From NCBI GenBank assembly GCA_965228855.1, contig CBDDIJ010000003.1:2784001-2848000 (forward strand): 64,000 nucleotides of DNA, in the 5' to 3' direction. Numbering within the stretch: position 1 is the stretch's first letter; each line of letters starts with the position of its first letter. This DNA is from Candidatus Obscuribacterales bacterium. Lineage in GTDB: Bacteria > Cyanobacteriota > Vampirovibrionia > Obscuribacterales > Obscuribacteraceae. A model generated the notes under the pieces. That model was given only the letters and a program-made list of their open reading frames with translations. It was not told the origin of the DNA and did no database searches. A program made the translations under genes and the position numbers. Shown here piece by piece: positions 2,021 through 18,892 of the stretch.

Positions 2021-2422
2021 TTAGCGGCGTTTGCTCGACTTCTTGGCGGCTTTCTTCTCGTACTTTTCGATGAAGTGTCTGGATTCCATCGGGAATTCAT
2101 CCAGAAATACTTCGAGAACATGCTCTACTGATCTGGCGATAAATTCTTCGCGATTGTTCTCCGGGCTGTAGCAATTTGCAAGACCAGCCTTGTCAACGAT
2201 CTTAAGCAAGCCCTTCTCTGAGAGCCGCACCATCGTAGTCATTACAGTCGTGTAAGCGATTTCGCGTCGTTTGCGCAGCGTATCGTAGATTTCGCGTACA
2301 GTGACAGTCGGATTTGCGAGTTTCCACGCGAGTTCCATAATGTCACACTCTAGATCGCCGAGAAACTTCTTCAACCCCTTCTGATTGAATCTGAAAGAGG
2401 CGTTCTCGTCGTGCATTCTCAT
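2021..2422 (-). CDS. BlaI/MecI/CopY family transcriptional repressor
   Basis: LGDLECDIMELAW...TVREIYDTL...IAYTTVMTTMVRLSEKGLL winged-helix signature; start taken at ATG 2422 (MRMHDEN) rather than the track start 2551. Confidence 0.85.
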   Translation of the reverse strand: MRMHDENASFRFNQKGLKKFLGDLECDIMELAWKLANPTVTVREIYDTLRKRREIAYTTVMTTMVRLSEKGLLKIVDKAGLANCYSPENNREEFIARSVEHVLEVFLDEFPMESRHFIEKYEKKAAKKSSKRR

Positions 2423-2650
2423 GAAATAACCATCCCATACCCGTTTCCGATGATCGTAACACAGCCTGACGACTTGTGGTAGTTGGTTTATCGAAATGCG
2501 AATTACGTGAAAACACGGACGAAGTGCTCTTTTCGTTGAACATGAAAGCATTCATAACTCGCAGGGCATAGATCTGAAGAAGATAAGATGACAATTTGCG
2601 CCTGGAGGTGTTTCAATGGCTCAATGATAGCCCCGCGTCCGGTATCAATT

Positions 2651-3235
2651 ATGTCTAATGGTTTAAAGCCTGTTGTCTTCCTAGATCGCGACGGAACCCT
2701 GAACGTGGAATCAGGATACATCCGCAACCTTTCGGATTTAAACTTGATCGAAGGCGCCGGAGAGGCAATCCGGAAGCTCAATTCCGCTGGAGTAGCGGCA
2801 GTGTTGGTAACCAATCAAACAGGAGCAGCACGCGGATATTATTCGGAGGAACACATCCTCGATTTGAATGCGCGACTGGTGAAACTGCTAAAAGAAGAGA
2901 ACGCCTACCTCGACGACCTCTACTATTGTCCACACCTGGCCGAGGGGACAGTTGCTCCCTATGCCAGAGAATGCGACTGTCGAAAACCGGCTCCTGGTCT
3001 GGTTGAACAAGCGTATAAAGAACATCCTGAATTGGATCGGGCTCGTTCCTTTGTGGTCGGCGACAAGGCTACCGACGTGGAACTCGCCACTAATTGCGGA
3101 GCAAAAAGCATTCTGGTTGAAACAGGATATGGCAAACAAGTTGTGGCGGGCGAATATCAGTGGAAGGTCACACCTGACTTCCAGACAGACAGCATCGTGC
3201 AAGCCGTTGAATGGATACTCGCTTCATTGAAGTGA
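2651..3235 (+). CDS. gmhB: HAD-IIIA hydrolase, heptose-1,7-bisphosphate phosphatase/histidinol phosphatase family
   Basis: FLDRDGTLN, VTNQTG, YYCPH, CDCRKPAPG and VGDKATD motifs; start ambiguous (2588-2651). Confidence 0.8.
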   Translation: MSNGLKPVVFLDRDGTLNVESGYIRNLSDLNLIEGAGEAIRKLNSAGVAAVLVTNQTGAARGYYSEEHILDLNARLVKLLKEENAYLDDLYYCPHLAEGTVAPYARECDCRKPAPGLVEQAYKEHPELDRARSFVVGDKATDVELATNCGAKSILVETGYGKQVVAGEYQWKVTPDFQTDSIVQAVEWILASLK

Positions 3236-3300
3236 TCGGTGAACTAATAAGTGAACTAAGCTGAGAACTAATCGACTTCGGTAACTGACTTCGATAACGG

Positions 3301-4662
3301 TTACGCAAATCTCGATTTTAGTAGCTGGCTCATTTCGTTAAGCAAACTCGGAATGTCGAACGGTTTTGGAAGATAGAGGTCTGCTCCCGCTTCCAGTGCT
3401 TTCGACTGGTCCGGATGCGATGTCGCCATAACAACCCAGATCTTGCAGAGCGCCTCGTCAGATTTAAGTACACGGCAAAGTTTCCAACCGTCCATTTTGC
3501 GATCGGATAGATTCGATTCAAGAAGAATCAGATCGGGAGGCTCATGGCGAGCCATGGTCAGAGCGTCATCAGCAGAACTCGTCACTTCAACCGTGTAGCC
3601 CTCGAGCGAGAGCGTCTCTTGTAACAAACAGGCCATGGCGCCATCCGGCTCCACGACAAGGATGCGGCCGGTAACAATGTCTTCTTCGGTTTTGCGCACT
3701 TCCACTTTGGTCGTCGGAAAAGTGCTTCCTTTTCGGATTTCTTCGCGAGGATGATCGTCAAGGACAAAGCAAGACTCGAGCTTCTGCTTCGCCAGATCTC
3801 GAGCGTCGCGCGCAGAAGTCAGAACGTCGACATAGCTCTGAAAGCGCCGCTTCGTGCTATCGACGATTCCAACTGCAACCGAAATCAAAGGCACCCTTCT
3901 TCTGATGCCACCACGGCCGGTGGAAATCAAATATCCTCGCTCGATGTCACCTTTGGGGTAAAAACGGGAACTCATCTTATCGAATTGCTGGCAGATTCTC
4001 TCTGCTTTACGCAAGGCCTCTTCTGGTCGACAGGTCATCAAAAAGTCGTCAGCTTCGATGTGCCCGACGAAGTCGGTATCATCGGCGATATCAGTCAAAA
4101 TCGCACCGAGAGCCTTAATCAACTGGTCGCCCGCCAGGTCGCCGTAAGTTTCGTTGTAAACCCGAATCTTATTCAAGTCAATCGACATCGCCGCCCAGTT
4201 ACGATCGGATACTAGCAGCTGCTCCAGCATGCGACGAATCATGTTCGGTCCGGGCATAAGCGTGAGTGGATTCGAAAATTCTTCCTGGCGTCTGCGCAAA
4301 TGCGCGAGAACACGAATCGCCAGTTCGTTTTTATCGATCGGATCCTGCAGCACGTCGTCTGCACCATATCTGAAGGCATTGATGCGCTCGTTTACATCAG
4401 TGGACGGGTGGAGGAGAACGAGCACCGGTCTTGGATGCACGAGGGTGGCACGCACCTGCTGGCAGTAAAGTCTGCCGTCGCCCTCAGGCATATTTGCGGA
4501 CAGAATGATCAAATCAGGATGAATGAACGACAGGAGTTCATTCGCTTCCTCAAATGAGGTTACGGCATTTACGCGCGCACCGGTCTTCTCGAGAATCGAC
4601 GCGTATTCAGCAGCCTGTCTAGCCTGATGAATGATGAGAAGTTGCGGCGTTGGAAGCATCAT
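3301..4662 (-). CDS. REC-GGDEF(degenerate)-REC signalling protein
   Basis: N- and C-terminal receiver-like folds (HPDLIILS, GADDVLQDP; PPDLILLE, GADLYLPKPF); central GGDEF-like domain (NPLTLMPG, YNETYGDLAGD, GHIEADDF). Confidence 0.8.
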   Translation of the reverse strand: MMLPTPQLLIIHQARQAAEYASILEKTGARVNAVTSFEEANELLSFIHPDLIILSANMPEGDGRLYCQQVRATLVHPRPVLVLLHPSTDVNERINAFRYGADDVLQDPIDKNELAIRVLAHLRRRQEEFSNPLTLMPGPNMIRRMLEQLLVSDRNWAAMSIDLNKIRVYNETYGDLAGDQLIKALGAILTDIADDTDFVGHIEADDFLMTCRPEEALRKAERICQQFDKMSSRFYPKGDIERGYLISTGRGGIRRRVPLISVAVGIVDSTKRRFQSYVDVLTSARDARDLAKQKLESCFVLDDHPREEIRKGSTFPTTKVEVRKTEEDIVTGRILVVEPDGAMACLLQETLSLEGYTVEVTSSADDALTMARHEPPDLILLESNLSDRKMDGWKLCRVLKSDEALCKIWVVMATSHPDQSKALEAGADLYLPKPFDIPSLLNEMSQLLKSRFA

Positions 4663-5924
4663 GCGAGGTCACGCCCCCGTTGTGCTTGCTTTTCATACGT
4701 GGCTGCGGGCAATCTCACGGTGAATGTGCTGCCGCCGGCGCCACTAGCGACGGTGATATCTCCGTCCAGAGCCAGAGCGAGAGAACGCGTGATGTAGAGC
4801 CCGAGACCGGTTCCTTCCGTTTGACGAACCAGCGGATTATCGAGACGGCTGAATTTATGGAAAATTTTCGGAAGATGTTCTTCCGGTATCCCCACGCCCT
4901 GATCGGAAACGAGAAATTCGACCATCTCGGTTGGATTGGCGCCGTCGCCCGGATCGTACATGATGGAACGCGCAAGGAAAGTAACGGTAGTGCCGGCTTG
5001 CGAGTACTTGATGGCGTTGTCGATCAAGTTGGTTAGAATCTGTTCCAAACGATCCGCATCAGCCCAGACCGGCGGCAAGCCTGCCGGAATGTCGATTACT
5101 ATTTTATGTTTCTCGGCTTTCTCAGCGAGGTTGAGTTGAACTCTTTCTACCGCGTCCTGAAGATCAATTGCTCTGTTGGTGAATTGCAGCCGTTTTGATT
5201 CAAGGCGTGAAACAGCAAGTAAGTCTTCAACCAGCCGCGTGAGACGGTCAGCCTGGTCTTTGATAATACCGACATATCTTCTCTGCTGGCTGACATCAAG
5301 ACGATCTCCGGCGCGCAAAATCGTGTCGGCAAAACCTTTTATGCTGGTCAGCGGGGTTCGCAACTCGTGACTGACCGTGCTGACGAAATCGGTCTGAGCT
5401 TGCTGAAGGGAGTTTGCCTGCAGGATGTAAACAATGGTCAGATGACTGGCACCATTCTTGTCAGCGGAAGCGGTCTTGGCTGCTGCAGTTTTGGCGCCGG
5501 TAGATTTTGCGCTTGCCGCTTTGGGCGAAACCGTGTTCTCGGCCGCGGCGGTTTTAGCAGCCGATGCTGTTTCCGCACCTTCGTTGATTGGAACGTGGCT
5601 CACGGGCATCACCAGCTGCGCGCCAGTTTTTCCTATTATCGAGGCCAGCTGCTGCGCCTTCGCCGACGTTTTACCGTCCGCCACCACATTCGGTGCGCTG
5701 TTGTTGAGCAACGGATGTTTCGGAGCATCTTGCTGCGTGTCTGGAACTTCAAAGTTGATAATCGATTTGAGCGGCTGACCCTGTAAGGATGCGGCGTCTT
5801 TGCCCACGAGCTTAGCCAACGCAGCGTTTACGCTCACTATCAAGCCCTGGGAATCGCTTACTACGAACCCGTCAGCACACTCGTCCAGTAGACAACGGTA
5901 AATGTCTTCGCTCTTCAATTGCAA
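4659..5924 (-). CDS. PAS-domain sensor histidine kinase
   Basis: PAS-like N-terminus (DGFVVSDSQGLIVSVN), H-box VSHELRTPL, N-box NLIDNAIKY, DQGVGI, GTGLGL; overlaps the downstream gene by 4 nt. Confidence 0.9.
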   Translation of the reverse strand: MQLKSEDIYRCLLDECADGFVVSDSQGLIVSVNAALAKLVGKDAASLQGQPLKSIINFEVPDTQQDAPKHPLLNNSAPNVVADGKTSAKAQQLASIIGKTGAQLVMPVSHVPINEGAETASAAKTAAAENTVSPKAASAKSTGAKTAAAKTASADKNGASHLTIVYILQANSLQQAQTDFVSTVSHELRTPLTSIKGFADTILRAGDRLDVSQQRRYVGIIKDQADRLTRLVEDLLAVSRLESKRLQFTNRAIDLQDAVERVQLNLAEKAEKHKIVIDIPAGLPPVWADADRLEQILTNLIDNAIKYSQAGTTVTFLARSIMYDPGDGANPTEMVEFLVSDQGVGIPEEHLPKIFHKFSRLDNPLVRQTEGTGLGLYITRSLALALDGDITVASGAGGSTFTVRLPAATYEKQAQRGRDLA

Positions 5925-6038
5925 TGTTCAATGCCACGTAAGTAGGGTGTGTGCGCGAACCCAATACACGTCGAGCGGGAGGGCCCAAAACCTACGTTAT
6001 CACCACATTAAGTATCTACTGGGCATTACAACCTATTG

Positions 6039-6431
6039 TTAAGGTTTAGACCCGAGGCTCAGGTCAAGAAGCTGGCTCAATCGCCCCTTGTCAGTCAGGT
6101 AAAGATAGCCAACCAGCGCCTCCATAGCGGTTGCGTAGCGATATGAAGCCTGGTCGGCACGCCTGTTGCCCGTTAGTTTAAGATTTCTTGCTCGACGGAC
6201 AATGTCCTGCTCCGGCTCCAGGAGGTGCTCCATCAATCCTTCCAGGATTCGAGCCTGACTTTCGGCATTGACCCGGCGCACCACCTTCTGATGAAGCGAC
6301 TCCGCGGTATGGGTGGTCATCACCTCGCGCTCCCGCTCGTAGAGCTCGAAAACAGCGTCCCCCAGATGCGCGAGCATCCGTAACGGCAAGTTTTTTGCCT
6401 CTGTTGTGGACAGCGTCTTTTCAAATAACAT
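6039..6431 (-). CDS. mrnC: Mini-ribonuclease III
   Basis: LAHLGDAVFELY...VNAESQA...IVRRARN...YRYATAMEALVGYLYL. Confidence 0.85.
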   Translation of the reverse strand: MLFEKTLSTTEAKNLPLRMLAHLGDAVFELYEREREVMTTHTAESLHQKVVRRVNAESQARILEGLMEHLLEPEQDIVRRARNLKLTGNRRADQASYRYATAMEALVGYLYLTDKGRLSQLLDLSLGSKP

Positions 6432-6467
6432 CTGTGACGAAACCGCTCCTGTTCAGGGTTTCAATAA

Positions 6468-7328
6468 TCAATCCTTGAAGTGCTCTTTGGAGCCGCGCTT
6501 GTTATGGCGCGTGTGATGACCAGGCCCGGATTTTTTGCGAGCATCCCCCCGCGACGAGCTTTCGTCACTGCCGCCCCCACCCAGCATTCTGGCGGAAATC
6601 ACTTGCATCGCAAATGAAGGTAACGCCGACAAGATGCGCTGAGCGCGCCACGGTTCAGATACAAGACGGTAAAACCATTCGAGATGCAGCTTGCGGAAAA
6701 ATGCCGGAGCTCGCTTGGTGAAGCCGGACCAGACATCAAAGCTTCCGCCTACGCCAATTACGACTGCATGGCCAAACTTTGCCTGCCAGCGTTCAATGAA
6801 AAATTCCTGGCGCGGAACACCCATTGCGACAAGCACCAGTTTGGGATTCGCAGCGGCAATCTCATCGACCATCGCTTCTTCCTGAGCGCCATCAAAAAAT
6901 CCGTCATGGCTGGCGACAATATTGATTCCTGGATGACGGCTCGGCAGAGTTGCGAGCAGTTTTTCCAGAACTTCGCCACGACCGCCAATCAGTGCGACCG
7001 GGATACTGTGCCGCGCTGCGCTACCTAGAGCTTTATCAGCGAGTTCGATTCCCGGCACGCGATAACACTCATGTCCATCAAGACGAATCGCCCAGACAGC
7101 GCCGGCTCCGTCGGGCACGATCAGATGCGCGTGACGAATAATGCGGTCCAGATCAGCATTCTTTTGAGCCTGTATGACCATCTCAGCGTTTATCGTCACC
7201 ACGTGCATGCCGCGATCGTTAGCCCATGCTCGCTCAATTCTTTCAAGCGCCTGGGTTTCGTCGACGACGTCGACCGGATAACCCAGAACTTTCTGGCGGG
7301 CTTCTGATGTTGACGGCGTCATTGGCAT
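6468..7328 (-). CDS. WecB/TagA/CpsF family glycosyltransferase
   Basis: VVTINAE, PDGAG, RVPGIEL, VAMGVPRQE, GVGGSFDVWSG, KRAP, LEWFYRL motifs. Confidence 0.9.
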   Translation of the reverse strand: MPMTPSTSEARQKVLGYPVDVVDETQALERIERAWANDRGMHVVTINAEMVIQAQKNADLDRIIRHAHLIVPDGAGAVWAIRLDGHECYRVPGIELADKALGSAARHSIPVALIGGRGEVLEKLLATLPSRHPGINIVASHDGFFDGAQEEAMVDEIAAANPKLVLVAMGVPRQEFFIERWQAKFGHAVVIGVGGSFDVWSGFTKRAPAFFRKLHLEWFYRLVSEPWRAQRILSALPSFAMQVISARMLGGGGSDESSSRGDARKKSGPGHHTRHNKRGSKEHFKD

Positions 7329-7395
7329 TGTCTGCGGTGCCTCGCGAATTCAGGTTTCCTAAATACAGCTGCGAAATTGGCTACAGAGCCAGCAT

Positions 7396-8544
7396 TCAGC
7401 TTTCTAGAATTCTAGCTATAACATCGAAGTTCTGGCAAGCCAACTCATTTTGAGACGCTGTCACCCGCTCGGCTCGTTCTCGAAACTCTAAATTGTCGGA
7501 AGAGGCTGTTTTGACAAGGTTTGCGAGTTCAGCAGCAAGGGCGGCATCGTCGTTATCGCTCGAACTCTTGGCAAGAATTAAGCATGGCTGCTCGAAGTTT
7601 TTCATCAGGTAAGAAACTTTCGGATCGTATGCAAGCCCCACGGCAGGCACTCCCGATTTAAGCGCCATCAGCAAAGCGTGGAAGCGCATTCCCACCACAA
7701 GATCCAGCTCGGATAATAGCGATAGCCACTGGCTAGGGCGGTCGATCTTCGAAAAATCCAGGTCCAGGGTGGCATGCCCATTTGATTTCCAAATCGTCGA
7801 AAACACTCTGAGCAACTCGGCATCCTGATTATGCTGCAAAATCAGTGGAACGAGTACTGTCCCTTCACGCACGTCGGCGCTGAGGCTGCGCGCCATCGCT
7901 TCGACTGTCGAACGACTGATGTGGTGACTTTCGCGAATGGATAAACCCATTAGACTACTGCCAGGCGGACGATTTTTGAGCGAGACTTCTGTTTCAGCAG
8001 GCAAGGCAGAGGGCTGTAAACACCAGACGGGATCGGCTGTCAGACGTGCTTTGTCGATGCCCCAACTCCTGAGAAGGTCAACGGAATTGCTGTCCCTTAC
8101 CGCTATTTCTCGGGCAAAACCCATAGCAGCTTTTGTTAACGCAACGGAGAGCGGACTCTTGAGCGGACCGACCCCCTGCGCATAAATGACAGTTGGTGCG
8201 CCGCTCAACTTCGCGAGCAACGCCAGACCGGCATAGTAAACGACGGATTTGACCGAACTGGCGTCTTGATACAGCCCGCCGCCACCACTTATGAAAAGTC
8301 TCGCCTTCGAAAAATACGGTCCGATTTCAGCCAGCTTCCATCGATTGATGCTGGTGACGCCGAACACTCTGTGAGTCTTTTCCGGATTTTGAGAAAGAAC
8401 GACGATTTTTGATTTGTCAGAAATTATGCGCGAGACCTCAGCGATAATCTCCTCGAGAATCGCCTCATCGCCTAAATTGTCGAAGCCGTAGTAACCGGAA
8501 ATAACAACATATTCACGTTCAGACATGATGGGAGTGTACACCAA
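7396..8544 (-). CDS. csaB: Polysaccharide pyruvyl transferase CsaB
   Basis: SGYYGFDNLGDEAIL, ISGGGGLYQD, YAQGVGPL, VRDSNS, GMRFHALLMA, YDPKV. Confidence 0.9.
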   Translation of the reverse strand: MVYTPIMSEREYVVISGYYGFDNLGDEAILEEIIAEVSRIISDKSKIVVLSQNPEKTHRVFGVTSINRWKLAEIGPYFSKARLFISGGGGLYQDASSVKSVVYYAGLALLAKLSGAPTVIYAQGVGPLKSPLSVALTKAAMGFAREIAVRDSNSVDLLRSWGIDKARLTADPVWCLQPSALPAETEVSLKNRPPGSSLMGLSIRESHHISRSTVEAMARSLSADVREGTVLVPLILQHNQDAELLRVFSTIWKSNGHATLDLDFSKIDRPSQWLSLLSELDLVVGMRFHALLMALKSGVPAVGLAYDPKVSYLMKNFEQPCLILAKSSSDNDDAALAAELANLVKTASSDNLEFRERAERVTASQNELACQNFDVIARILES

Positions 8545-8601: not shown

Positions 8602-9954
8602 ATGGGCGAATGCGCCGCGCTAGCTGAAATCGGGAACTTGGCAAATACAATCGGCACGACCGTTTTCGACGGCGGGCGCGTGCAATGCAATGAACTCGAA
8701 ATAGAAGATTCGAAGCAGCTCTGCAATGTACTCCGGCACGCCAACAATGAAAGAGTTTTTGTCTTTCGAGGTACGGTTGACGAGCATCCTGCCAAGCTCG
8801 CGAAACTGTTCCCTGCTTCTGAGAAGCATGTGCAAGCGGTGTTTCTAAACCTGAGCAAGATGAATAGAATCATCGAACACGTCAAGGGCGATCAGGTTGT
8901 CTCGGTTGAAACAGGTATCCAAATTAGTGAGTTAAACGAATATCTGAGTAAACATGGGCAATGGCTGCCGGTTGAGTATAGCTCCGCCGCCGTCTCATTG
9001 GCAGATATGTTAGATACCGCCGATGGTGGGTATCTCGAACCATTCAGCGGAGGAGTAAAACATCTTGTCCTCGGCATGGAGCTCGGGATCGCGCATGGCG
9101 AGTTGATTAAGACCGGTGGCAAGATCGTCAAAAATGTCACAGGCTACGATTTAAGCAAGGTTTTTACGGGCAGCCGCTCCTGGCTAGCAGTACCACATAT
9201 GGTGCATCTCAGATTGCATTCAAAACCGGAAACAGAGGTTGCATTCGTGGTCTCAAGCGAAAAACCACACGAGCTGGTAGGTCTGGCAAACCGACTGCAG
9301 GCAACCGGTCTACCCGCCTTCTCGCTGGAATTAATTGATATACGATTGCTGCAACGAATCGCAAACCTTGCAGACGGCTCGGCGTCAGCTAAAGAGGATA
9401 TCGCAGCTTTCTGTTCAACCACAGGCGCTCTAGAAGGTAAATTGATCGTGAGCACCCGCGGGCATCACGATGTCTGCAGAGAGGTAGCTAGAGCCCTGCA
9501 GGAAGCCGTTTTACAAAGCAACCTGGAGTTGGAAGCCGTCGAGGCCGAATCTGCATTGCTCAATCGAATTCAAAGAATCTGCTCCGACGTCTTCAAAGAT
9601 CATGACGATTATGTCGAGTTATCGATGCCGGCGTCAACAATGTCTTACTACCTCGAAACGCAGTGGCGAGGCAGCAAACGGTTGTGGTCTGCTAGACCTT
9701 CGAGTGGTAGACTTCGGTTAGCGGTTGATGATGCGGAATCATTTATCAGCGATTTATCCAATTTTGCGAATTTGATTAATAGGGATGATGCGCAACCGCT
9801 GACGGTGGCATACTCTAATAACCAGCAAGACTTCGTCACTCGACGAATTCCAGCTGACCATGAGAGTGACAGCGGTCTGCGCAACGTCATTGACAGACTG
9901 AAATCCAAGTACGATCCAAATGGCATCCTCAATCCGCTCGTGAGTTTTTGCTAG
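8602..9954 (+). CDS. glcE: FAD-binding oxidoreductase, glycolate oxidase GlcE-like subunit
   Basis: GGKIVKNVTGYDLSKVFTGS motif, C-terminal LKSKYDPNGILNP; adjacent to glcF. Confidence 0.75.
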   Translation: MGECAALAEIGNLANTIGTTVFDGGRVQCNELEIEDSKQLCNVLRHANNERVFVFRGTVDEHPAKLAKLFPASEKHVQAVFLNLSKMNRIIEHVKGDQVVSVETGIQISELNEYLSKHGQWLPVEYSSAAVSLADMLDTADGGYLEPFSGGVKHLVLGMELGIAHGELIKTGGKIVKNVTGYDLSKVFTGSRSWLAVPHMVHLRLHSKPETEVAFVVSSEKPHELVGLANRLQATGLPAFSLELIDIRLLQRIANLADGSASAKEDIAAFCSTTGALEGKLIVSTRGHHDVCREVARALQEAVLQSNLELEAVEAESALLNRIQRICSDVFKDHDDYVELSMPASTMSYYLETQWRGSKRLWSARPSSGRLRLAVDDAESFISDLSNFANLINRDDAQPLTVAYSNNQQDFVTRRIPADHESDSGLRNVIDRLKSKYDPNGILNPLVSFC

Positions 9955-9956
9955 GG

Positions 9957-11300
9957 ATGGAAACGAAATCACACGAGGGAAAATTGATTTCAACCTCGGG
10001 CACTCCCGCGGTGAATCCCGCTCTGCTGGCCAGCTGCATCCACTGCGGTCTGTGCCTGCCGGCCTGTCCGACCTACCTGGCCACTGGAAGGGAGATGGAA
10101 TCGCCCCGCGGACGCATCCACCTCATTAATCAGTGGTCGTCCGGACATGCAGAAATGACGGACCGCATGACCGGACATCTCGAGTCCTGCCTTGGCTGCC
10201 TCGGATGCCAGACGGCATGCCCGTCGGGTGTTCAGTACGAGGAAATTTTAAACCAGACGCGCCCGCACCTGGCGGTCAGGCGCAGCAGTTTTGCAAGAAC
10301 AGTGATGCGATTTGCATTTCAGCAAATTTTGCCAAGGTATAAACTGCTGCGTTTGCTTGGAAATTTGTTACGAGCCTGGCAGCTCATGTTTGGAACAGCC
10401 GTACTTGAAACCCTGTTCGGGAAGGAACGATTGCAATCAGATTCAGCGGTTGGCAAGGCTTTAAACAGATTGATCGACTGGGAAGCGTTTACTCCCATTG
10501 TTCCGCCACAAGTCAGCCTGCCACCAAGTCTGGTACCGAAGGGCAATAACGAAAAAGGGACTCACACGCAACTCTTCGCAGGTTGCGTCATGGACGTTTT
10601 CTACAATCACGTCAATCACGCGTCCATCCGCTTAATGCTGAAACAAGGACACAGTGTCGATGTACCGAAGCAGACTTGCTGCGGCGCACTGGCGTACCAT
10701 GCAGGAGAAGAAGATATTGCCATAGCCCTCGCCAAGAAAAATATCGACGATTTCGGTCACAGCAGCACACCGATAGTGGTGACATCGGCCGGTTGTGGAG
10801 CCATGCTCAAACACTACGGTCATCTATTGGAGGGCGATCGTGAGTACGCGCACAAGGCGGAGCTGTTCTCAAAGCGAGTCGAGGACATAACCCAATTTCT
10901 CGCTCACCATCAATTTCCGGATAAGCCGGAACCCTTGCCGAACAAAACGACCTACCATGCGGCTTGCCACCTTGCCCATGCCCAGAGTGTCAGAAAGGAA
11001 CCGGCGGATTTACTTAACGAGTTAAACTGCGACAGTGAGAATAAGCTCGTTCCTCTGGTTGAGTCAGAGCACTGTTGTGGCAGCGCCGGTATATACAACT
11101 TGCTGAATACGAGGCTGAGCCTAAAGGTTCTGGACCGCAAACTGGACTATATAGAAGACACAGGTGCGAAAACCGTTGTAACAACGAATCCCGGCTGCAT
11201 GATTCAACTTCAAGCGGGAATCCGCGAAAGAAAACTACCTGTCGAGGTCAAGCATCTTATTGAAGTGCTTGACGAGTCATACTTCTCAGAGCCGAAATAA
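9957..11300 (+). CDS. glcF: Glycolate oxidase iron-sulfur subunit
   Basis: CIHCGLCLPACPTY, ESPRGRI, CLGCLGCQTACPSGV and two CCG domains (QTCCGAL, HCCGSAGIYN). Confidence 0.88.
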   Translation: METKSHEGKLISTSGTPAVNPALLASCIHCGLCLPACPTYLATGREMESPRGRIHLINQWSSGHAEMTDRMTGHLESCLGCLGCQTACPSGVQYEEILNQTRPHLAVRRSSFARTVMRFAFQQILPRYKLLRLLGNLLRAWQLMFGTAVLETLFGKERLQSDSAVGKALNRLIDWEAFTPIVPPQVSLPPSLVPKGNNEKGTHTQLFAGCVMDVFYNHVNHASIRLMLKQGHSVDVPKQTCCGALAYHAGEEDIAIALAKKNIDDFGHSSTPIVVTSAGCGAMLKHYGHLLEGDREYAHKAELFSKRVEDITQFLAHHQFPDKPEPLPNKTTYHAACHLAHAQSVRKEPADLLNELNCDSENKLVPLVESEHCCGSAGIYNLLNTRLSLKVLDRKLDYIEDTGAKTVVTTNPGCMIQLQAGIRERKLPVEVKHLIEVLDESYFSEPK

Positions 11301-11604
11301 GGTTCCAGGATTCACTCGCGAAGCAAAACGGCATCCGACTGAACCGCTCAACAAATCCACGGCAAATGGCATCGGACGGCACTGCTCCACGAAACCAGTT
11401 TGCATTAGATCCGGATTCACCGTTAGCCATAACAGACTGGCTCATTACATTTTTGTTAGCAGTCTAAATTGCGCCACTCGGTGAAGATCCGCTTCATATC
11501 ACTAATCTGGAAGATTTGGTCTTTCTGGAACGATCTATAATTGTGCTTCGCCGGGTCAGGTCACCCGACGTTATCAAGACTTTCGCCAGAAAGAGGGTTC
11601 GACA

Positions 11605-12258
11605 TTGTCTACCGTGTTAGTGAAACAGCAGAAGCCCGATGTGTTCGATTTCGATTTACCGGAGGAACGGCTGAATCACTACCTCAAGAAGTCGGTCATC
11701 GCCGTAGACACCGAGACACGCGGGTTGAACCTGCGACGTGATCGCCTCTGTCTGGTGCAAATATGCGACGACGAAGGCGTTGTGAGCTTTGTTCGTTTCC
11801 GTGATCGCACTCAGCTGCCCTTCTCCGGCAACACGAATTTGAAGAAACTATTCGAAGCACAGCAAGTGATGAAGCTTTTCCATTACGCCCGCTTTGACGT
11901 CGGCGTGATGAAGTACTACCTTGATATCGACATCAACCCAATCTGGTGCACAAAGATCGCGTCGAAATTAGTCCGCACCTATACCGACAAGCACAGCCTG
12001 AAGTATCTGGTCGCGGAACTTCTCGAGATCGAGCTCGACAAGAGCGACCAGATGAGCGATTGGGCGAAGGACGATCTGACAGATTCGCAGCTTGAGTACG
12101 CCGCGAACGACGTCCGCGTGCTCATACCAATTCAGAAGAAGCTGGAAATAATTTTGGAACGAGAAGGTCGCCTGGACCTGGCAAAACGTTTGTTCGCCAC
12201 GCTGCCTCTGGTTTGCGAGATGGACAGACTCGGTTTCCAAAACATCTTCGAGCACTAA
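11605..12258 (+). CDS. rnd: Ribonuclease D-like 3'-5' exonuclease (short, no HRDC domain)
   Basis: AVDTETRGL, RDRLCLVQI, FHYARFD, CTKIASKLVRTYTDKHSLK, SDW, YAANDV (DEDDy). Confidence 0.85.
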   Translation: MSTVLVKQQKPDVFDFDLPEERLNHYLKKSVIAVDTETRGLNLRRDRLCLVQICDDEGVVSFVRFRDRTQLPFSGNTNLKKLFEAQQVMKLFHYARFDVGVMKYYLDIDINPIWCTKIASKLVRTYTDKHSLKYLVAELLEIELDKSDQMSDWAKDDLTDSQLEYAANDVRVLIPIQKKLEIILEREGRLDLAKRLFATLPLVCEMDRLGFQNIFEH

Positions 12259-12324
12259 ATTTTTTCGCATCACGAAAACAGTTTCCACCTAAACATTCGA
12301 ACCGGACCGGAGGACACAATAAAA

Positions 12325-13776
12325 ATGGAAAAGCTGATCTACGAGAAATCCAGCCCTGGACGCCGTGGAGTGAAGGTTCCAACATCCAATGTTCCGGAGA
12401 AAAAACTCTCGGACATGATTCCGAGTCAGTACGTGCGTAAAGAAGCGGCAGCGTTGCCGGAAGTCACAGAGCTGGACACCATGCGCCACTTCGTGAGACT
12501 GTCACATTTGAACCATTCAATCGATACAGGGTTCTATCCGCTCGGTTCTTGCACGATGAAATACAACCCCAAAGTCAATGACGCGATGGCGGCACTTGAG
12601 GGATTTAGAGAACTCCATCCGCACCAACCGGTCGATCAAATTCAAGGTGCCCTGGAACTGCTGTATAACCTGGAACAGATGATCGCGGAGATTGTCGGTT
12701 TGCCACACGTCACCTTCCAGCCAGCCGCTGGGGCTCACGGTGAGCTTACCGGTTTGTTGTTGATCCGCGCTTACTTCGAAGCAAAAGGTCAAACGAATAG
12801 AAACATCGTCATCGTGCCCGACACCGCCCACGGTACCAACCCTGCGACCGCAGCGCTCGCCGGCTTCGAAGTTGTCGAGATCGGATCGAACGAAAAAGGT
12901 TTGGTCGACATTGAAGCTCTGAAAGGCGCTTTGAACGAAAACGTAGCGGCCATCATGTTGACGAACCCGAACACCCTCGGTTTGTTCGAAGAAGAAATCA
13001 TGACGGTTCAAAAGCTCATGCACGAAGCCGGCGGTATGTTGTACTACGACGGCGCGAACTTGAACGCGATCATGGGTCTGGTCAGACCGGGCGACATGGG
13101 CTTCGACGTCTGCCACCTCAATCTGCACAAGTCGTTCTCCACTCCTCACGGTGGTGGCGGTCCTGGTGGTTGCGCCGTCGCTGCCCGCAAAGAACTTCTG
13201 CCATTCTTCCCGAAACCGGTTGTTGTCAAAACTAATGACGGGTATGAATTTGATTGGAATCGCGAGCAATCAATCGGAAAAATCAAAGGGTTCTTCGGCA
13301 ACTTCGGAATTCTGGTCAGAGCCTATACCTATATTCTTGCAAACGGAAGAGAAGGTTTAGAGCAGATATCACGAGATGCGATTCTCAACGCCAACTACCT
13401 GAAAGAACAGCTCAAGCACATCTACGATTTACCGCACACGCAATCGTGCATGCACGAGTTCGTCATATCCGGTTCGAGACAAAAGGCTCGTGGAGTTTCA
13501 ACTTCGCACATCGCCAAACGCCTTCTGGATTACGGTGTTCACGCTCCGACAGTTTACTTCCCGCTGGTAGTGCCGGAAGCAATGATGATTGAGCCGACAG
13601 AAACAGAATCGAAGGACACCCTCGACTCGTTCGTCGAAATAATGACGAGCATCGACAAAGAAACCATAGAGACACCGGATGTGGTGCTTAATGCGCCGCA
13701 CACGACGCCGGTGGCGAAATTGGACGAAGCACTTGCTGCTCGCAAACCCAATCTAAGATGGACGCCGGGCACTTAA
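12325..13776 (+). CDS. gcvPB: Glycine dehydrogenase (decarboxylating) subunit 2
   Basis: [34 protein letters not shown]-lysine motif [25 protein letters not shown]. Confidence 0.95.
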
Positions 13777-13998: not shown

Positions 13999-16086
13999 AT
14001 GTCGTTTCTCTTAGGCTTCCAGAATAAATCCGCTGATGCGGAGCCATACTCCCTCACCGCAGATGCCCTGCGGCAACATTTGCTCATCACCGGCGGACCA
14101 AGCACCGGTAAAACAAACACATGCTGGCAACTTCTCACGGAGCTGAGCAAAGAGCAAGTTCCTTTTCTCATGCTGGAAACGTCCGGCAAAAACTATCGGA
14201 AACTGACGACCGAGCAGGCTTCAATTCGCACGTTTTCGATATGCGACGACGCGAAAGACTCGCTCCGCTTCAATCCGCTGCGATGCGAATCGCATGTGCG
14301 CATTCTCAATCATATACAAACCATTGTGTCCCTCACGACAGCATCTTTCAATCTTTCGATAACGTCCTCAAAGGTGCTTGAGAAGGCGCTATATGCCGTC
14401 TACAACAATCATGGCTGGAATCTGTTCAGAAACAGAAACAACCGCGTCAAACCGAACGAGAGCGGTGAATCCAGCGGCTATCCGCCGGAAGCCTATCCCA
14501 CCCTTCTGGAACTCCTGGAGTTTATTGAAAGCGTTCCGTTCGCGAATGTGTTGGCAAGCAACCCGCCCCAGGAATTAGTGCGCGCGATTGATTCACTCGT
14601 ATCGGCCAGTAGTGGTGCCGTATTCAATACCAAGTTAGGACTGCCTCACGATTTCTACGAACACAGTCAGCTGCTGGTCGAGTGTGATGGTATCTCGGAT
14701 ATTCGCAACAAGTGTTTCCTCGTCGGCATGCTGTTGTTGCAAGTCAACGAACATTATATGAAACAAGTCGATGATCGAGAAAAGCGTTGCATCGTGATCG
14801 ACGATGCGATTCAACTGACCTATTTGATGGGTCTGCCCGGTCGACGCGTCGGCGACGATCAGAAGGAGGACAGCTGGATTCCACTGTCGACTCTTTTGGG
14901 AAATCTGCGCCGTCTTTCCGTGCCACTTATTCTTTCAATGCAGGCATCAAGCAAGCTCAGTCAAGATTTGATCGCACTGTTCGGTACAAAGATTTTTCAT
15001 CGGATCGACGTTCAGCAAGCCAAACAAATTTCAAACGGTTTACCAGAAGACCTTGATGAAAAGGAGCTCTACAAGTGTCCTGTCGGTGCCGCCTGGGTCG
15101 TAGGACAAGATCAACCTGCAAGTGTTTTTTTGAAAGTTCCAAAACATGACATTCCCGAGCGAGATACTTCGGTCGCGAACATCGGTTCGATGAAAAACAC
15201 TTTGAACTGCCGATACGCAGGCTGCTCCTCATTTCCCGGTGCCTGCGAGGATGACACCTTCGTCAAAGCGCGCGAGATTGCAGATAGTCAGGCGTTTCGC
15301 ACTATATATGTAAACTACTTCCTGAGCTGCCAGAAAGATCTCACTCAGCTGGTTCATTTCCGCGGAAGGCTGGTTGGCGAGTTGCAATCGCAGATAGGCA
15401 AAAAATTTCCCGACATCGTCGAGTTGAGCTGGTGCACAATTTGTCAGGCGACCGAATGGTATTTCGATAAGCTCGCTCGCGAACATGGTTGGTCCTATGC
15501 GGATTTGCATGAACAGAAGGAACGTTGGTTCAGTATGTTGCGCCCGGCGTTTCTACCGGATTGGCCGACGAGACGAATTAACATCGACGATCTTCGCCAG
15601 TGGCGTGATGAGTTTTGGAAATTGAAAGAACGCGACCAGGGTCCGCTTCCGCTCTGCGGAGAGTGTGACGCGAAGTGCAGATATGGATCGGATGTCGAAC
15701 ACATACTTCTAGATTCTCGCAACGAAAACGATTTTTTCAAAGCATTGTCCGGAGAGACGGAACCGCTCTCTAAGGCAGCTGCGTGGTTCTGCTGGCTGTT
15801 TTCCGAACGAGTGATGGGTGAACCTGACTTCGACCTCGCTTATTGCTTTGCAGCGCACTTCCTGGGGCGCGCGAACCTGAGTGTCGATGCGCAACTCGTA
15901 TTCGCGCACAAGACACGTCAGCAACTCGAAGATGCTAAACAAAAGTTCGAAGCCGGCGAACCAATTTTCCCGACGCCTGAAACCAAAACAGAAGAAACTG
16001 AAAAAGAAGCGAGAAGACGTCGCGCCAGAGAAAGAAGAAAAAATCGTCAGGATGGTGACGAGCCTCCTCTCAAGCCAGTTCCCTGA
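13999..16086 (+). CDS. HerA/FtsK-superfamily (DUF87-like) P-loop ATPase with degenerate motifs and a Cys-rich C-terminal domain
   Basis: HLLITGGPSTGKT Walker A, FNPL, YPTLLEL, Walker B read as IVIDDA, LILSMQ...TKIFHRI; C-terminal CSSFPGAC and CGECDAKC; start TTG 13981 or ATG 13999. Confidence 0.7.
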   Translation: MSFLLGFQNKSADAEPYSLTADALRQHLLITGGPSTGKTNTCWQLLTELSKEQVPFLMLETSGKNYRKLTTEQASIRTFSICDDAKDSLRFNPLRCESHVRILNHIQTIVSLTTASFNLSITSSKVLEKALYAVYNNHGWNLFRNRNNRVKPNESGESSGYPPEAYPTLLELLEFIESVPFANVLASNPPQELVRAIDSLVSASSGAVFNTKLGLPHDFYEHSQLLVECDGISDIRNKCFLVGMLLLQVNEHYMKQVDDREKRCIVIDDAIQLTYLMGLPGRRVGDDQKEDSWIPLSTLLGNLRRLSVPLILSMQASSKLSQDLIALFGTKIFHRIDVQQAKQISNGLPEDLDEKELYKCPVGAAWVVGQDQPASVFLKVPKHDIPERDTSVANIGSMKNTLNCRYAGCSSFPGACEDDTFVKAREIADSQAFRTIYVNYFLSCQKDLTQLVHFRGRLVGELQSQIGKKFPDIVELSWCTICQATEWYFDKLAREHGWSYADLHEQKERWFSMLRPAFLPDWPTRRINIDDLRQWRDEFWKLKERDQGPLPLCGECDAKCRYGSDVEHILLDSRNENDFFKALSGETEPLSKAAAWFCWLFSERVMGEPDFDLAYCFAAHFLGRANLSVDAQLVFAHKTRQQLEDAKQKFEAGEPIFPTPETKTEETEKEARRRRARERRKNRQDGDEPPLKPVP

Positions 16087-16253
16087 TTCTTATCTTTTCC
16101 CGATACGATACATATCTCGATCGAGAGCACCACATATATCGCTTGTGTGAATGCGTTTAAGTTCACTCTCGTTTATTGACTTTCGTAACGAACTGGAGTT
16201 AGATCTGTCGTGTGAGGAATGCGCGAACTGGGGTAGTGCAGAAGTCACAAGTT

Positions 16254-16463
16254 TTGAAGGAACGGGGAGAACCCATCTGCTCTGGACCGCTTACGCGGTG
16301 TAGGTTGATGTTTCGTCAACCAGTTTGGTGTGGTGTCATTTCCAGCGACAAAAATTGCTGCTGGGGTTCTGAAAGAAATTCTCGAAGAACCGTTATTAAG
16401 GGACTGAGCGTTAATCCGGCGCATTGATTCCTAGCGGGGCATGGGTCTCCTCCGTTTCTTCAA
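16254..16463 (+). ncRNA. Putative retron msr-msd non-coding RNA
   Basis: Arms 16254-16284 and 16435-16463 form a ~28-bp imperfect inverted repeat; internal hairpins at 16286-16299, 16303-16321, 16342-16364 and 16365-16391; ends 44 nt upstream of a retron-type RT. Confidence 0.7.
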
Positions 16464-16507
16464 TTACTGACTGAACAGTTTTCGCAGAAAACAAAGAGTT
16501 TGGTGGC

Positions 16508-17395
16508 ATGTACGATATCAATACCCTCGATCAACTCGCCGGCGAATTAGCCGTGTCCGAATTCGAGCTATTGCGGTTCGTATATCGCAGCGGTGAATTT
16601 TACAGAAGATTCAAACGCAGAAAGAGCAACGGTGACACCCGCGTCATCCACGCTCCCGATGAGCCTTTGAAGAGTCTTCACCGGGCAATTATCAAACGCT
16701 TTCTCGCTCCAATTCCATTGCCTGATGCCTGCACAGGTTTTCGTCCAGGCAAGTCGATACTAAACAACACGATTCCACATTGTGGAAGACGTTTTGTCTT
16801 CAATGTCGACATAGAAGATTTCTTTGCATCGATATCTTCTGAACGAGTTCTGGGCTTGTATCTCAGGCTTGGGTTCGCTTTTCCGGTCGCCTGCGTGTTG
16901 ACGGAACTAACTACTTTTATGGGCTCGCTGCCACAAGGCGCGCCATCCTCTCCTTATCTCGCCAATCTGATTGCGCACAGTCTCGACATGGAGATGACCG
17001 AGTACTGCAAAAACAGAGGCTGGACGTACACTCGTTATTGCGATGATATCACCATATCTGGTGACACCACTTTCACGCTCGGCGATATGAAAATGGTTAC
17101 CGAGATTCTGGACTCGGAAGGCTTCCAGTTGAACATGAAGAAAACCCGCTTCCTGCGCCGAAACTCAGCGCAAATGGTATCAGGTCTGGTAGTGAATAAA
17201 CGACCGAACTTGCCTCGCGAAAAGCGACGCAATATTCGTGCGATGTTTCACCAAGCCAGCATAAGTCCGGAGAAATACAAAGAGCGCACGCAAGAGCTGG
17301 AAAACCACCTTTCGATGCTTTCAATGTTGAATCCACAAGATGCCGAGGTTATCAAATATCGCGCGATTTTAAACAAAGTCTGCGCCCAAGCATAA
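16508..17395 (+). CDS. Retron-type reverse transcriptase
   Basis: KSNGDTRVIHAP, GFRPGKSILNNTIPH (region X, NAxxH-like), DIEDFFASI, LPQGAPSSPYLAN, YTRYCDDITIS, QMVSGLVVN (VTG-like region Y); 295 aa with no maturase or endonuclease domain. Confidence 0.88.
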   Translation: MYDINTLDQLAGELAVSEFELLRFVYRSGEFYRRFKRRKSNGDTRVIHAPDEPLKSLHRAIIKRFLAPIPLPDACTGFRPGKSILNNTIPHCGRRFVFNVDIEDFFASISSERVLGLYLRLGFAFPVACVLTELTTFMGSLPQGAPSSPYLANLIAHSLDMEMTEYCKNRGWTYTRYCDDITISGDTTFTLGDMKMVTEILDSEGFQLNMKKTRFLRRNSAQMVSGLVVNKRPNLPREKRRNIRAMFHQASISPEKYKERTQELENHLSMLSMLNPQDAEVIKYRAILNKVCAQA

Positions 17396-17441
17396 AGTTT
17401 AGCGACCGTCTGAGCCTAACTCAGCGAACCGAACACAACCG

Positions 17442-17486
17442 CAGAGAGCCGCGTGATTTCGTCGATCACGCGGCTCTCTGTTTCTT
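17442..17486 (+). terminator. Strong hairpin terminator downstream of the RT
   Basis: Perfect 16-bp stem CAGAGAGCCGCGTGAT/ATCACGCGGCTCTCTG followed by TTTCTT. Confidence 0.8.
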
Positions 17487-17508
17487 GGCAAACCAGATAG
17501 ACGAAGTG

Positions 17509-17655
17509 CTCAAGCGAAGCCAAGCGACTGAAGCCAAGCCATTAGCTCGAGCGAAGTGAGCAATCATCTCAAGCGAAACCAAGCGAGCGAAGCCAAGCCA
17601 TCAGCTTGATCTACCCCGAACCAGATCTACCTAGAACCAGATCTACGCAGAACCA
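17509..17655. repeat. Degenerate intergenic repeats: two 42-bp copies plus three 16-bp copies
   Basis: ctcaagcgaa(g/a)ccaagcga..gaagccaagccat(t/c)agct(c/t)ga at 17509-17550 and 17568-17609; gatctacNNNgaacca x3 at 17608-17655. Confidence 0.75.
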
Positions 17656-17656
17656 C

Positions 17657-18892
17657 TTAACGCATCAAATTGCTGTATTCCATTTGAAACTGAACGTATT
17701 GCTTCTTCTCGAGCAATCTAGCTATTTCGCGTCTAGTGCCTTTGATGGGAGCCAGACAAGACAGTGCCACGAAATTGATGAATGTCAGCGGTGTTAGAGC
17801 CATGATAAACTTCGTCACTTCATCGCCATGCATACCGTAGTAGCAAGCCATCGCAAGGTAAAAGCCAATCAGATTGCAGACCAGAAAGATGACGCAGTGC
17901 ATAACGAGGAAAAAGCGTTCGCGAATCAATGACGCATTGAGCGACTCCATCTCACTGAGCAATGCCGGTGGAACTGATCCTGCGGCGCCACCACTGATTT
18001 GAGCGAACGTAGGAGCGCCGCCGGTCGGAGGGAGTGGAACAGTGTTGCCTGCCGGATTCATGGACGGCGTTGGTGCCCAATCCATCTTGGTTCCGGAAAT
18101 CTGCGAAAGACGAAACGCTTCCAATTTTGCCAGGTCATCATACGAAACAGTATTCGGTATTGCGACCTGCTGAGGCAGAGGCTGCGAGAATGACTGTTGC
18201 GCGTATTGAGGATTTACGTGATTGTTCTGTTGAACAAAGCCAGAAGGGACCCCGTTCTGGCTTGGATAAACTTGTGGAAAATTGTTCGTAACTTGTTGTG
18301 CCTGGAAGTTACCGGTGTTTTGCGGCCCCTGGAAATTTCCTGCTGGTGCCTGATAGTTACCCGTCTGAACCTGAGAATTTCCTGACTGAGCCTGATAGTT
18401 CCCTGTCTGAGCCTGATAGTTACCCGTCTGCGCCTGATAGTTACCGGTTTGCGCCTGAAAATTCCCTGTTGATGCCTGGAAGTTACCTGTCTGCGCTTGA
18501 AATGCTCCCGCCTGAGCTTGAGGTTGACCTGCGTGCGTTTGGTAGTGATTGTTTTGCGACTGATGCATGCCTGGCTGAGGCTGAACGGCGTGGAATGAAT
18601 TGGTTACCGCCTGCTGCGCTTGCTGGTAGTTACCTGTCACCGTCTGTGGTGGCTGCACATAACCCTGACCGAATTGATGCGCGGACGCTCCTGGCACACC
18701 CGAACTCGGATGCGATGGGTATATGCCCATACGGCTAGCAGCTTGTGCGAAGGCTGACTCTAGAGGAATGGAATTAGTAATAGTTGGTTCGACTGTAGTT
18801 CCGCATTCACCGCAGAACTTGGCGCAGGGCTCCAATAAGTTGGAGCAATTCACGCAAGGCGTCTTTTGTTGGCGTGTCAACGAGCTGGTCAT
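17657..18892 (-). CDS. Zinc-ribbon protein with Gln-rich heptad repeats and two C-terminal TM helices
   Basis: N-terminal CVNC..FCGECG; QAQTGN(Y/F) repeats; two hydrophobic helices (FFLVMHCVIFLVCNLIGFYLA, FIMALTPLTFINFVALSCL). Confidence 0.75.
   Translation of the reverse strand: MTSSLTRQQKTPCVNCSNLLEPCAKFCGECGTTVEPTITNSIPLESAFAQAASRMGIYPSHPSSGVPGASAHQFGQGYVQPPQTVTGNYQQAQQAVTNSFHAVQPQPGMHQSQNNHYQTHAGQPQAQAGAFQAQTGNFQASTGNFQAQTGNYQAQTGNYQAQTGNYQAQSGNSQVQTGNYQAPAGNFQGPQNTGNFQAQQVTNNFPQVYPSQNGVPSGFVQQNNHVNPQYAQQSFSQPLPQQVAIPNTVSYDDLAKLEAFRLSQISGTKMDWAPTPSMNPAGNTVPLPPTGGAPTFAQISGGAAGSVPPALLSEMESLNASLIRERFFLVMHCVIFLVCNLIGFYLAMACYYGMHGDEVTKFIMALTPLTFINFVALSCLAPIKGTRREIARLLEKKQYVQFQMEYSNLMR
18301..18520 (-). 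repeat. 21-bp coding tandem repeat (QAQTGNY/F heptad)
   Basis: cctgatagttacccgtctgcg-type unit, about 9-10 degenerate copies. Confidence 0.85.

Follow-up and report, generated by a model that had tools for sequence, protein, structure and literature searches.

The 210 nt segment directly 5′ of a retron-type reverse transcriptase (RT) gene in a Candidatus Obscuribacterales bacterium is very likely a retron msr-msd RNA, which the RT would use as both primer and template. The RNA and RT form a vertically inherited orphan retron with an atypical msd, and represent a variant of the retrons rather than a new class; the term orphan is used because in most genera the fixed chromosomal site is occupied by just the RNA and the RT. 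The RNA was located at positions 16254–16463 on the + strand of the window, by which we mean the whole 64,000 nt stretch of DNA that was analysed, originating from a genome of 8.2 Mb. An earlier sequence-only reading had described the segment as msr-msd-like, and this is supported here by an RT gene in the same orientation that starts 44 nt downstream, by covariation of the a1/a2 arms, by an invariant G, by a hairpin with an 8 bp stem and UUU loop, and by RNA contigs from metatranscriptomes. To our knowledge, the retrons studied so far come nearly all from Proteobacteria, where they are mobile defence systems of three parts.

The RNA element, its RT and RNA contigs of the region

The minimum free energy (MFE) fold of 16254–16463 was −89.3 kcal/mol, compared to a mean of −62.7 kcal/mol (sd 4.65) for dinucleotide-preserving shuffles (z −5.72), with 0/200 shuffles being as stable. 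The fold reproduced the layout proposed in the sequence-only reading, of which every coordinate and pairing matched the sequence. The outer end of the closing helix is formed by TTGAAGGAACGG (16254–16265) paired with CCGTTTCTTCAA (16452–16463), and its inner end by GCTCTG (16279–16284) and CGGGGC (16435–16440). The long closing stem, previously put at ~28 bp, is a helix of ~29 bp between the a1 and a2 arms, which covaries in relatives. G16285 is unpaired in the MFE fold, and the earlier placement of a G just 3′ of the closing stem with short stem-loops behind it agreed both with hairpins 1 and 2 and with the conservation of this G in 26/26 alignable homologues. The segment had also been called unannotated, and an Rfam scan of positions 15000–18000 with E-values up to 10 indeed gave no meaningful family; the rows for STnc390 (E 7.9, over hairpins 1 and 2) and Hammerhead_II (E 0.22, inside the NTPase ORF) were at chance level and were discarded. 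The parts of the element and the neighbouring features are listed in Table 1.

Table 1. Features of the retron locus in the window, with examples of the sister lineage in relatives
Feature	Position	Strand	Basis and remarks
HerA/DUF87-like P-loop NTPase, 701 aa	13981–16086	+	Weak nSTAND3, TrwB and mad8 hits; DUF87/HerA clusters in Atlas feature search at 0.98
Promoter-like conserved upstream block	16176–16204	+	TTGACT, 17 nt, TTAGAT; precedes the RNA in every genus seen
5′ leader ahead of closing helix	16205–16253	+	Partial conservation within genus; RNA contigs start inside it at 16223, 16236 and 16238
Closing helix 5′ arm (retron a2)	16254–16284	+	Pairs with 16435–16463; fold and covariation
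Unpaired G, predicted 2′-OH priming (branching) residue	16285	+	Fold; G in 26/26 alignable rows
msr hairpin 1, ACCGC-ttac-GCGGT	16286–16299	+	Fold; 96.7% of cells paired (34 rows), 2/5 pairs change on both sides
msr hairpin 2, GGTTGATG-ttt-CGTCAACC, 8 bp stem with UUU loop	16303–16321	+	Likely RT recognition element
Linker, expected (putative) reverse-transcription stop	16322–16341	+	Sequence conserved in genera g1 and g15
msd hairpin 3, CCAGC...GCTGG	16342–16364	+	Fold; in 12/13 orthologous msd segments, none in G012
msd hairpin 4, GGTTCT...AGAACC	16365–16391	+	Fold; stem sequence varies between genera, pairing kept
msd hairpin 5, AGGGA...GAGCG-loop-GCGC...TTCCT	16399–16432	+	Sequence-conserved; consensus structure of msd alignment
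Unpaired AG, predicted first templating bases (putative role)	16433–16434	+	AG or TAG before the 3′ arm in orthologues and paralogues
Closing helix 3′ arm (retron a1)	16435–16463	+	Fold and covariation
Retron-type RT, 295 aa (NTIPH, YCDD and VSG motifs)	16508–17395	+	Pfam RVT_1, E 9e-21; PADLOC; NCBIfam
Convergent Zn-ribbon/Q-rich/TM gene	17657–18892	−	Followed by ubiB-like and rph genes
Sister retron examples	L017 (G010) 9264–13723; L020 (G004:C251) 3104–7720; G086:C1:842226–845594		In relatives only

A scan with the σ70 consensus gave no promoter-like sites in 16050–17700; the conserved block at 16176–16204 was missed because its second hexamer lacks an A at position 2. This block is promoter-like, and is a putative promoter of the element.

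The sequence-only reading had allowed for there being no transcript. Metatranscriptome contigs from four runs in three studies do cover the region (16223–16438, 16236–16513, 16238–16441 and 16266–16418), ranging from 153 to 278 nt with 0–2 differences each and no loose ends, and one run of a fourth study contained a relative's version of the RNA. Neither ends, strand nor level can be read from assembled contigs, and DNA may be present in RNA libraries. What can be said is that such libraries contain the RNA region together with its leader, which would lie outside any RT-DNA, and that its neighbours are mostly absent, an absence that for parts of the locus without RNA contigs is uninformative by itself. 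The RNA contigs covering 16223–16513 held nothing of the RT gene beyond 16513, and when 14 kb were taken as a control, two of the runs yielded the RNA once more together with one 152 nt near-identical piece in rph, the remaining pieces being partial matches of 32–47 nt from other organisms. Two runs, each from a different study, have contigs that stop at 16438 and 16441, respectively, which is 4–7 nt past the predicted first templated base; this hints weakly at processing of the 3′ end.

The 295 aa RT has no extra fused domain in Pfam. The PADLOC retron RT models scored it at 225–251 bits, with RT_II-A the highest and III-A, XI and XIII at most 11 bits behind, and RT_Ec107-like at 217 bits (compared to 251 for the best model). 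The NCBIfam model retron_St85_RT gave 216 bits, which is under its cut-off of 235, and Drt2 gave only 44.7 bits; non-coding RNAs are also located upstream of other defence-associated reverse transcriptases. The RT can be assigned to no single type, since it falls under the NCBIfam cut-offs and its PADLOC scores are nearly equal. The closest solved protein was the Ec86 RT (phmmer, E 5e-44, 154 bits, residues 13–252). The motifs NTIPH (NAxxH-like), YCDD and VSG (VTG-like) were read from the alignment and are conserved in relatives, with the paralogous RTs having NAxPH and VTG; NTIPH and VSG are conservative variants of NAxxH and VTG. The PADLOC scores, the Ec86 match and the motifs place the protein in the retron clade. 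The RT gene was intact in 20/20 orthologue genomes, with a dN of 0.10–0.28, a saturated dS, and a dN/dS of 0.03 and 0.07 for the two computable pairs, and is under purifying selection.

Homologous RNAs, covariation and the shape of the msd

Folding and covariation analysis 5′ of homologous RTs, as suggested in the sequence-only reading, found covarying structure both in 10 orthologues and in a 34-row set. The first alignment (A2) consisted of 10 distinct orthologue RNAs, and had standard pairs in 94.9% of pair cells, versus 46–50% with the 3′ partners slid. Changes on both sides were present in 15 pairs against a mean of 6.8 in shuffled alignments, the observed covariation score was reached by 0/500 shuffles, and within the closing helix 14/24 pairs had changed on both sides. 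A covariance model built from A2 (R1) was used to align 34 matches including paralogues, and in these rows both-side changes were found in 23/24 closing-helix pairs, in an alignment which is fitted to, and leans towards, the model. The G following the 5′ arm was counted in 26 of these rows, after setting aside three that are partial and the five that belong to genus g16. Hairpin 2 is invariant in the orthologues of A2, whereas in relatives among the 34 rows G-C has been replaced by A-U and U-A by C-G. R1 also matched hairpin 2 at 100–300 nt 5′ of distant RTs (≤44% identity) from other phyla, where it is a covarying stem with the UUU loop kept; the RNAs of these distant RTs have long msd hairpins.

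In genus g16 (L012, L025–L029) the RNA has a rearranged 5′ part that lacks TGGACCGC, the priming G is uncertain, and R1 scores reach only 20–27 bits. The closing helix is apparently ~11 pairs longer in this genus, and a covarying stem (GCGGCT/AGCCGC versus ACGGCC/GGCCGT) surrounds hairpin 2.

The RNA was 79–83% identical within a genus and 59–73% between genera, and the third codon positions of the RT gene were 46–47% and 36–40% identical, respectively. The region is overlapped by one ORF on each strand (71 aa, 16212–16427 on the + strand; 59 aa, 16245–16424 on the − strand), which would fit a small protein gene, with a decaying relic or a chance structure as further options. Such readings are extremely improbable, as none of the reading frames through the RNA stays open across species, the RNA contains compensatory changes and is conserved well above third-codon-position identity, the region is present in RNA libraries, and each of the 20 orthologue genomes has an intact RT gene.

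In a retron msr-msd RNA, the msr is expected to have one to three hairpins, and the msd typically a long stable stem-loop (single or double) with a stem of 10–50 bp, as described in the text of PMC7736814. The msr is represented here by the short hairpins 1 and 2. The sequence-only reading had noted several short hairpins in the msd rather than one long hairpin, and this holds for the fold, which contains hairpins 3, 4 and 5: the msd folded alone gave the same three RNA hairpins in 12/13 orthologous segments, with about 9, 6+3 and 5+5 pairs in the window and no helix of >14 pairs in the 13 orthologues. The complementary DNA of the msd folds at −11 kcal/mol in the window (z −0.96) and between −4 and −17 kcal/mol in relatives. 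Because of its G-U pairs, hairpin 5 is better as RNA than as complementary DNA. MAFFT combined with RNAalifold on the msd segment returned hairpin 5 only, and hairpins 3 and 4 were judged from single-sequence folds. The long msd hairpin of the text description is thus lacking, although the supplementary structures belonging to that text may include comparable shapes (PMC7736814).

The thumb of the Ec86 RT binds an msr element consisting of an eight-base-pair stem and a UUU loop of three bases (PMC6868368). Hairpin 2 has the same geometry, and is therefore the likely RT recognition element. In the mechanism that we propose, the RT thumb would bind hairpin 2, and the 2′-OH of G16285 would prime DNA synthesis opposite G16434, the predicted first templated base. 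Synthesis would then proceed leftwards through hairpins 5, 4 and 3 and may stop in the linker at 16322–16341, giving a branched RT-DNA of at most about 113 nt, with short hairpins instead of one long stem. The RT-DNA itself is a prediction, as are its length (~100 nt) and its ends.

Alternatively, the boundary between msr and msd may lie elsewhere, with reverse transcription limited to hairpin 5, or to this hairpin and hairpin 4, giving an RT-DNA of roughly 35–70 nt, and with the remaining msd hairpins belonging to the untranscribed msr part. Sequence conservation in the presumptive msd is indeed confined to hairpin 5 and the bases ahead of the 3′ arm, while hairpins 3 and 4 are variable and hairpin 3 is missing in G012; four msr hairpins would be unusual but close to the one to three allowed in the text of PMC7736814. 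We consider such a shorter product unlikely. The G-U pairs of hairpin 5 become mismatches in DNA, so that a product of hairpin 5 only would be nearly unstructured, there is no mark of a stop site inside the msd, and the long hairpins of related retrons in other phyla occupy the equivalent middle region.

Chromosomal site, inheritance and neighbouring genes

RT matches with E ≤ 1e-60 were present in 35/104 genomes of the family. Orthologues with 55–100% identity were found in 20 genomes from six genera of Candidatus Obscuribacterales, and a further 19 hits with 41–47% identity constitute a paralogous group. A search of the 104 family genomes with R1 gave 33 matches in 28 genomes, and 32 of these matches were immediately followed by an RT hit in the same orientation. 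Likewise, a scan for exact motifs retrieved 14 metagenome contigs, which without exception had the full R1 fold and a downstream RT, and the same scan of viral contigs for phage carriage gave no matches. In the window and in the four other genera examined for this, the RNA and RT are flanked by gcvPB on one side and by the Zn-ribbon/TM gene on the other, followed by ubiB and rph. The RNA and RT share this one chromosomal site in six genera, which is new in this analysis. The identity of the RT between genomes correlated with that of neighbouring gene products (Pearson 0.96 for gcvPB, 0.94 for UbiB and 0.86 for RNase PH, using 15 non-independent pairs each), and the divergence of the RT thus tracks that of flanking housekeeping genes, as expected for vertical inheritance of the retron RNA and RT. 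The literature on Melainabacteria, Obscuribacter and Vampirovibrionia did not mention a retron among the matches listed, and the text of the SPIRE survey did not contain 'Cyanobacteri', 'orphan' or 'HerA'.

In two genera lacking the RT, gcvPB and the Zn-ribbon gene are within about 60 nt of each other, and in three others the gap is filled by unrelated, ordinary genes. A defence island at this site was considered and is not supported, the inserts in RT-less genera being HEAT-repeat, histidine-kinase, aldo-keto-reductase and TPR genes. HEAT-repeat proteins are encoded in the gap of two RT-less genera (L040, 7173–8015; L046, 6692–7969); HEAT/ARM proteins are accessories of type XIII retrons (PMC7736814), and with no RT at these sites the resemblance is probably a coincidence.

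The paralogous RTs, 41–47% identical to that of the window, belong to a sister retron lineage, whose homologous RNA is closed by a helix of its own. In 15/19 paralogue hits, from five genera, the sister RT is directly 3′ of ligD on the same strand, and one further sister RT within 1.8 kb of ligD adds a sixth genus. The ligD-linked arrangement was also present in 6/7 metagenome contigs with a paralogue, and in the two loci for which long flanks were available, ku precedes ligD. The genome of the window contains ligD, and R1 gave no second RNA hit in it. The adjacency to ligD could be plain synteny or could reflect a functional link to end joining. On G005:C134 (L045, about 3194–3337) a shortened, 144 nt copy of the RNA follows ligD, with an R1 score of 30 bits and no downstream RT; it is the single R1 match in the family without an RT, and apparently a remnant of a sister retron.

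Directly upstream of the RNA in the window is the gene for the HerA/DUF87-like NTPase, which adjoins the RT in the 8 genomes of the window's genus. The RT loci of four other genera that were inspected lack it, as do all 77 distant RT loci. A paralogue of the NTPase that is ~35% identical (~1,066–1,070 aa, weak DUF87 hit) is encoded elsewhere in the family, either on another contig or >100 kb from the RT; in a search of 41 genomes of relatives, a DUF87/HerA-like protein of ~1,066 aa (e.g. L044 (G000:C3), 2175–5375) was present in 23/24 other family genomes. The NTPase did not match any PADLOC retron effector model, and type X of Mestre was rejected as its home, as this type pairs with an IHF/VHL protein according to the text of PMC7736814. 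It is possible that the NTPase is a genus-specific partner of the retron. In G001, G003 and G004, a 251 aa ORF of no known family lies between the NTPase and the RNA.

On the other side of the RT, the convergent Zn-ribbon/TM gene is present in 103/104 family genomes with or without RT, and is therefore neither specific to the retron nor its partner, which led to its rejection as effector. Its product has a long Q-rich repeat (QAQTGN[YF]Q units) and is 411 aa here, compared to 233–240 aa in other genera where the repeat is much shorter. A 635 aa ORF located 3′ of the RT in G001, G006 and G007 was likewise rejected as effector, lacking Pfam and PADLOC hits and being absent from the window and from the searched loci of other genera. 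In G007, which has an RT that is 99.7% identical, this gene is situated between the RT and the Zn-ribbon gene (L002, 2597–3883) and, judged by eye, seems to encode a multi-pass membrane protein; positions 17396–17656 of the window contain no trace of this polytopic-membrane-protein-like gene. A 16 bp G+C-rich hairpin at 17442–17480, between the convergent RT and Zn-ribbon genes, is terminator-like on the minus strand. The ORFs flanking the RT gave no Pfam or PADLOC hit for a nucleoside-deoxyribosyltransferase-like effector, and no type-specific accessory protein or RT-fused domain of types I–XIII was found at the examined loci. The conserved unit consists of the RNA and RT, since the NTPase is restricted to one genus and the Zn-ribbon gene is family-wide.

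The absence of a conserved effector, the atypical msd and the long residence at one housekeeping site would also be compatible with a retron-derived pair which does not make classical msDNA, the RNA serving the RT gene as a leader or a regulator, or being a template that is used otherwise. We regard this as quite improbable, because the closing helix, the invariant G and the recognition hairpin have all been kept, the RT has retained its catalytic and retron motifs under purifying selection, and the RT scores on retron models are far above those on Drt models. The preferred reading remains a retron in which the RT would reverse transcribe the msd of its own RNA.

Comparison with known retrons and possible roles

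Retron-Eco1 (Ec86, type II-A) is similar in having the closest solved RT, the top PADLOC model (RT_II-A) and a hairpin of 8 bp with a UUU loop, and also in the location of the RNA 5′ of the RT, the closing a1/a2 helix and the G after the 5′ arm. It differs in that RT identity is low, with types II-A, III-A, XI and XIII within 11 bits, that no nucleoside-deoxyribosyltransferase-like effector is adjacent in the window, that the msd consists of three short hairpins, and that the retron of the window is chromosomal and vertically inherited. The text of PMC7736814 describes orphan retrons, such as the branch of Retron-Eco5 (Ec107), as lacking a linked accessory gene, with effectors in trans or another function being discussed. 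The Ec107-type orphans likewise consist of RNA and RT without such a gene, but RT_Ec107-like is not the best model for the RT of the window, and the orphan state has been held here at one site in several genera.

The myxobacterial type XIII retrons (Mx162, Mx65 and Sa163) are vertically inherited and correlate with host phylogeny (PMC7736814; PMC6868368). Vertical inheritance is shared with the retron described here, whereas the type XIII accessories (a winged-helix/SWIM protein and HEAT/ARM proteins) are not beside the RT of the window, and RT_XIII, the top model for the ligD-linked paralogues, is not the highest-scoring one for the RT of the window. Finally, type I-A retrons (Ec78/Ec83), which have the PtuA ATPase, resemble the arrangement in the window's genus in having a P-loop NTPase gene directly upstream. 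The ATPase of type I retrons is of the ABC/SMC type (PMC7736814), whereas the NTPase found here is HerA/DUF87-like, has no PADLOC hit for PtuA and no HNH partner, and is present in one genus only.

The retron could function in defence with a partner encoded elsewhere, could have acquired the HerA-like NTPase as partner in the window's genus, or could have a domesticated function. A broader form of the last option would take both Obscuribacterales retrons, the pair at gcvPB and the pair at ku-ligD, as domesticated, with the RT-DNA serving a cellular function or signalling to distant partners, and not acting as antitoxin of a linked abortive-infection effector. The lack of a dedicated toxin throughout the divergence of several genera would then point to a cellular or trans-signalling role of the RT-DNA, for example in DNA repair or stress. 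We consider this broader form speculative and rather unlikely.

The compact RT of 295 aa and its new template architecture could be of interest for retron-based genome editing. The retron described here comes from an uncultured, non-photosynthetic cyanobacterial lineage, and its RNA is found in natural communities. Being maintained at one site in six genera without a fixed partner, and with an msd of short hairpins, it is a natural test case for two questions, namely what function orphan retrons have and how much weight the shape of the msd has in RT-DNA synthesis.
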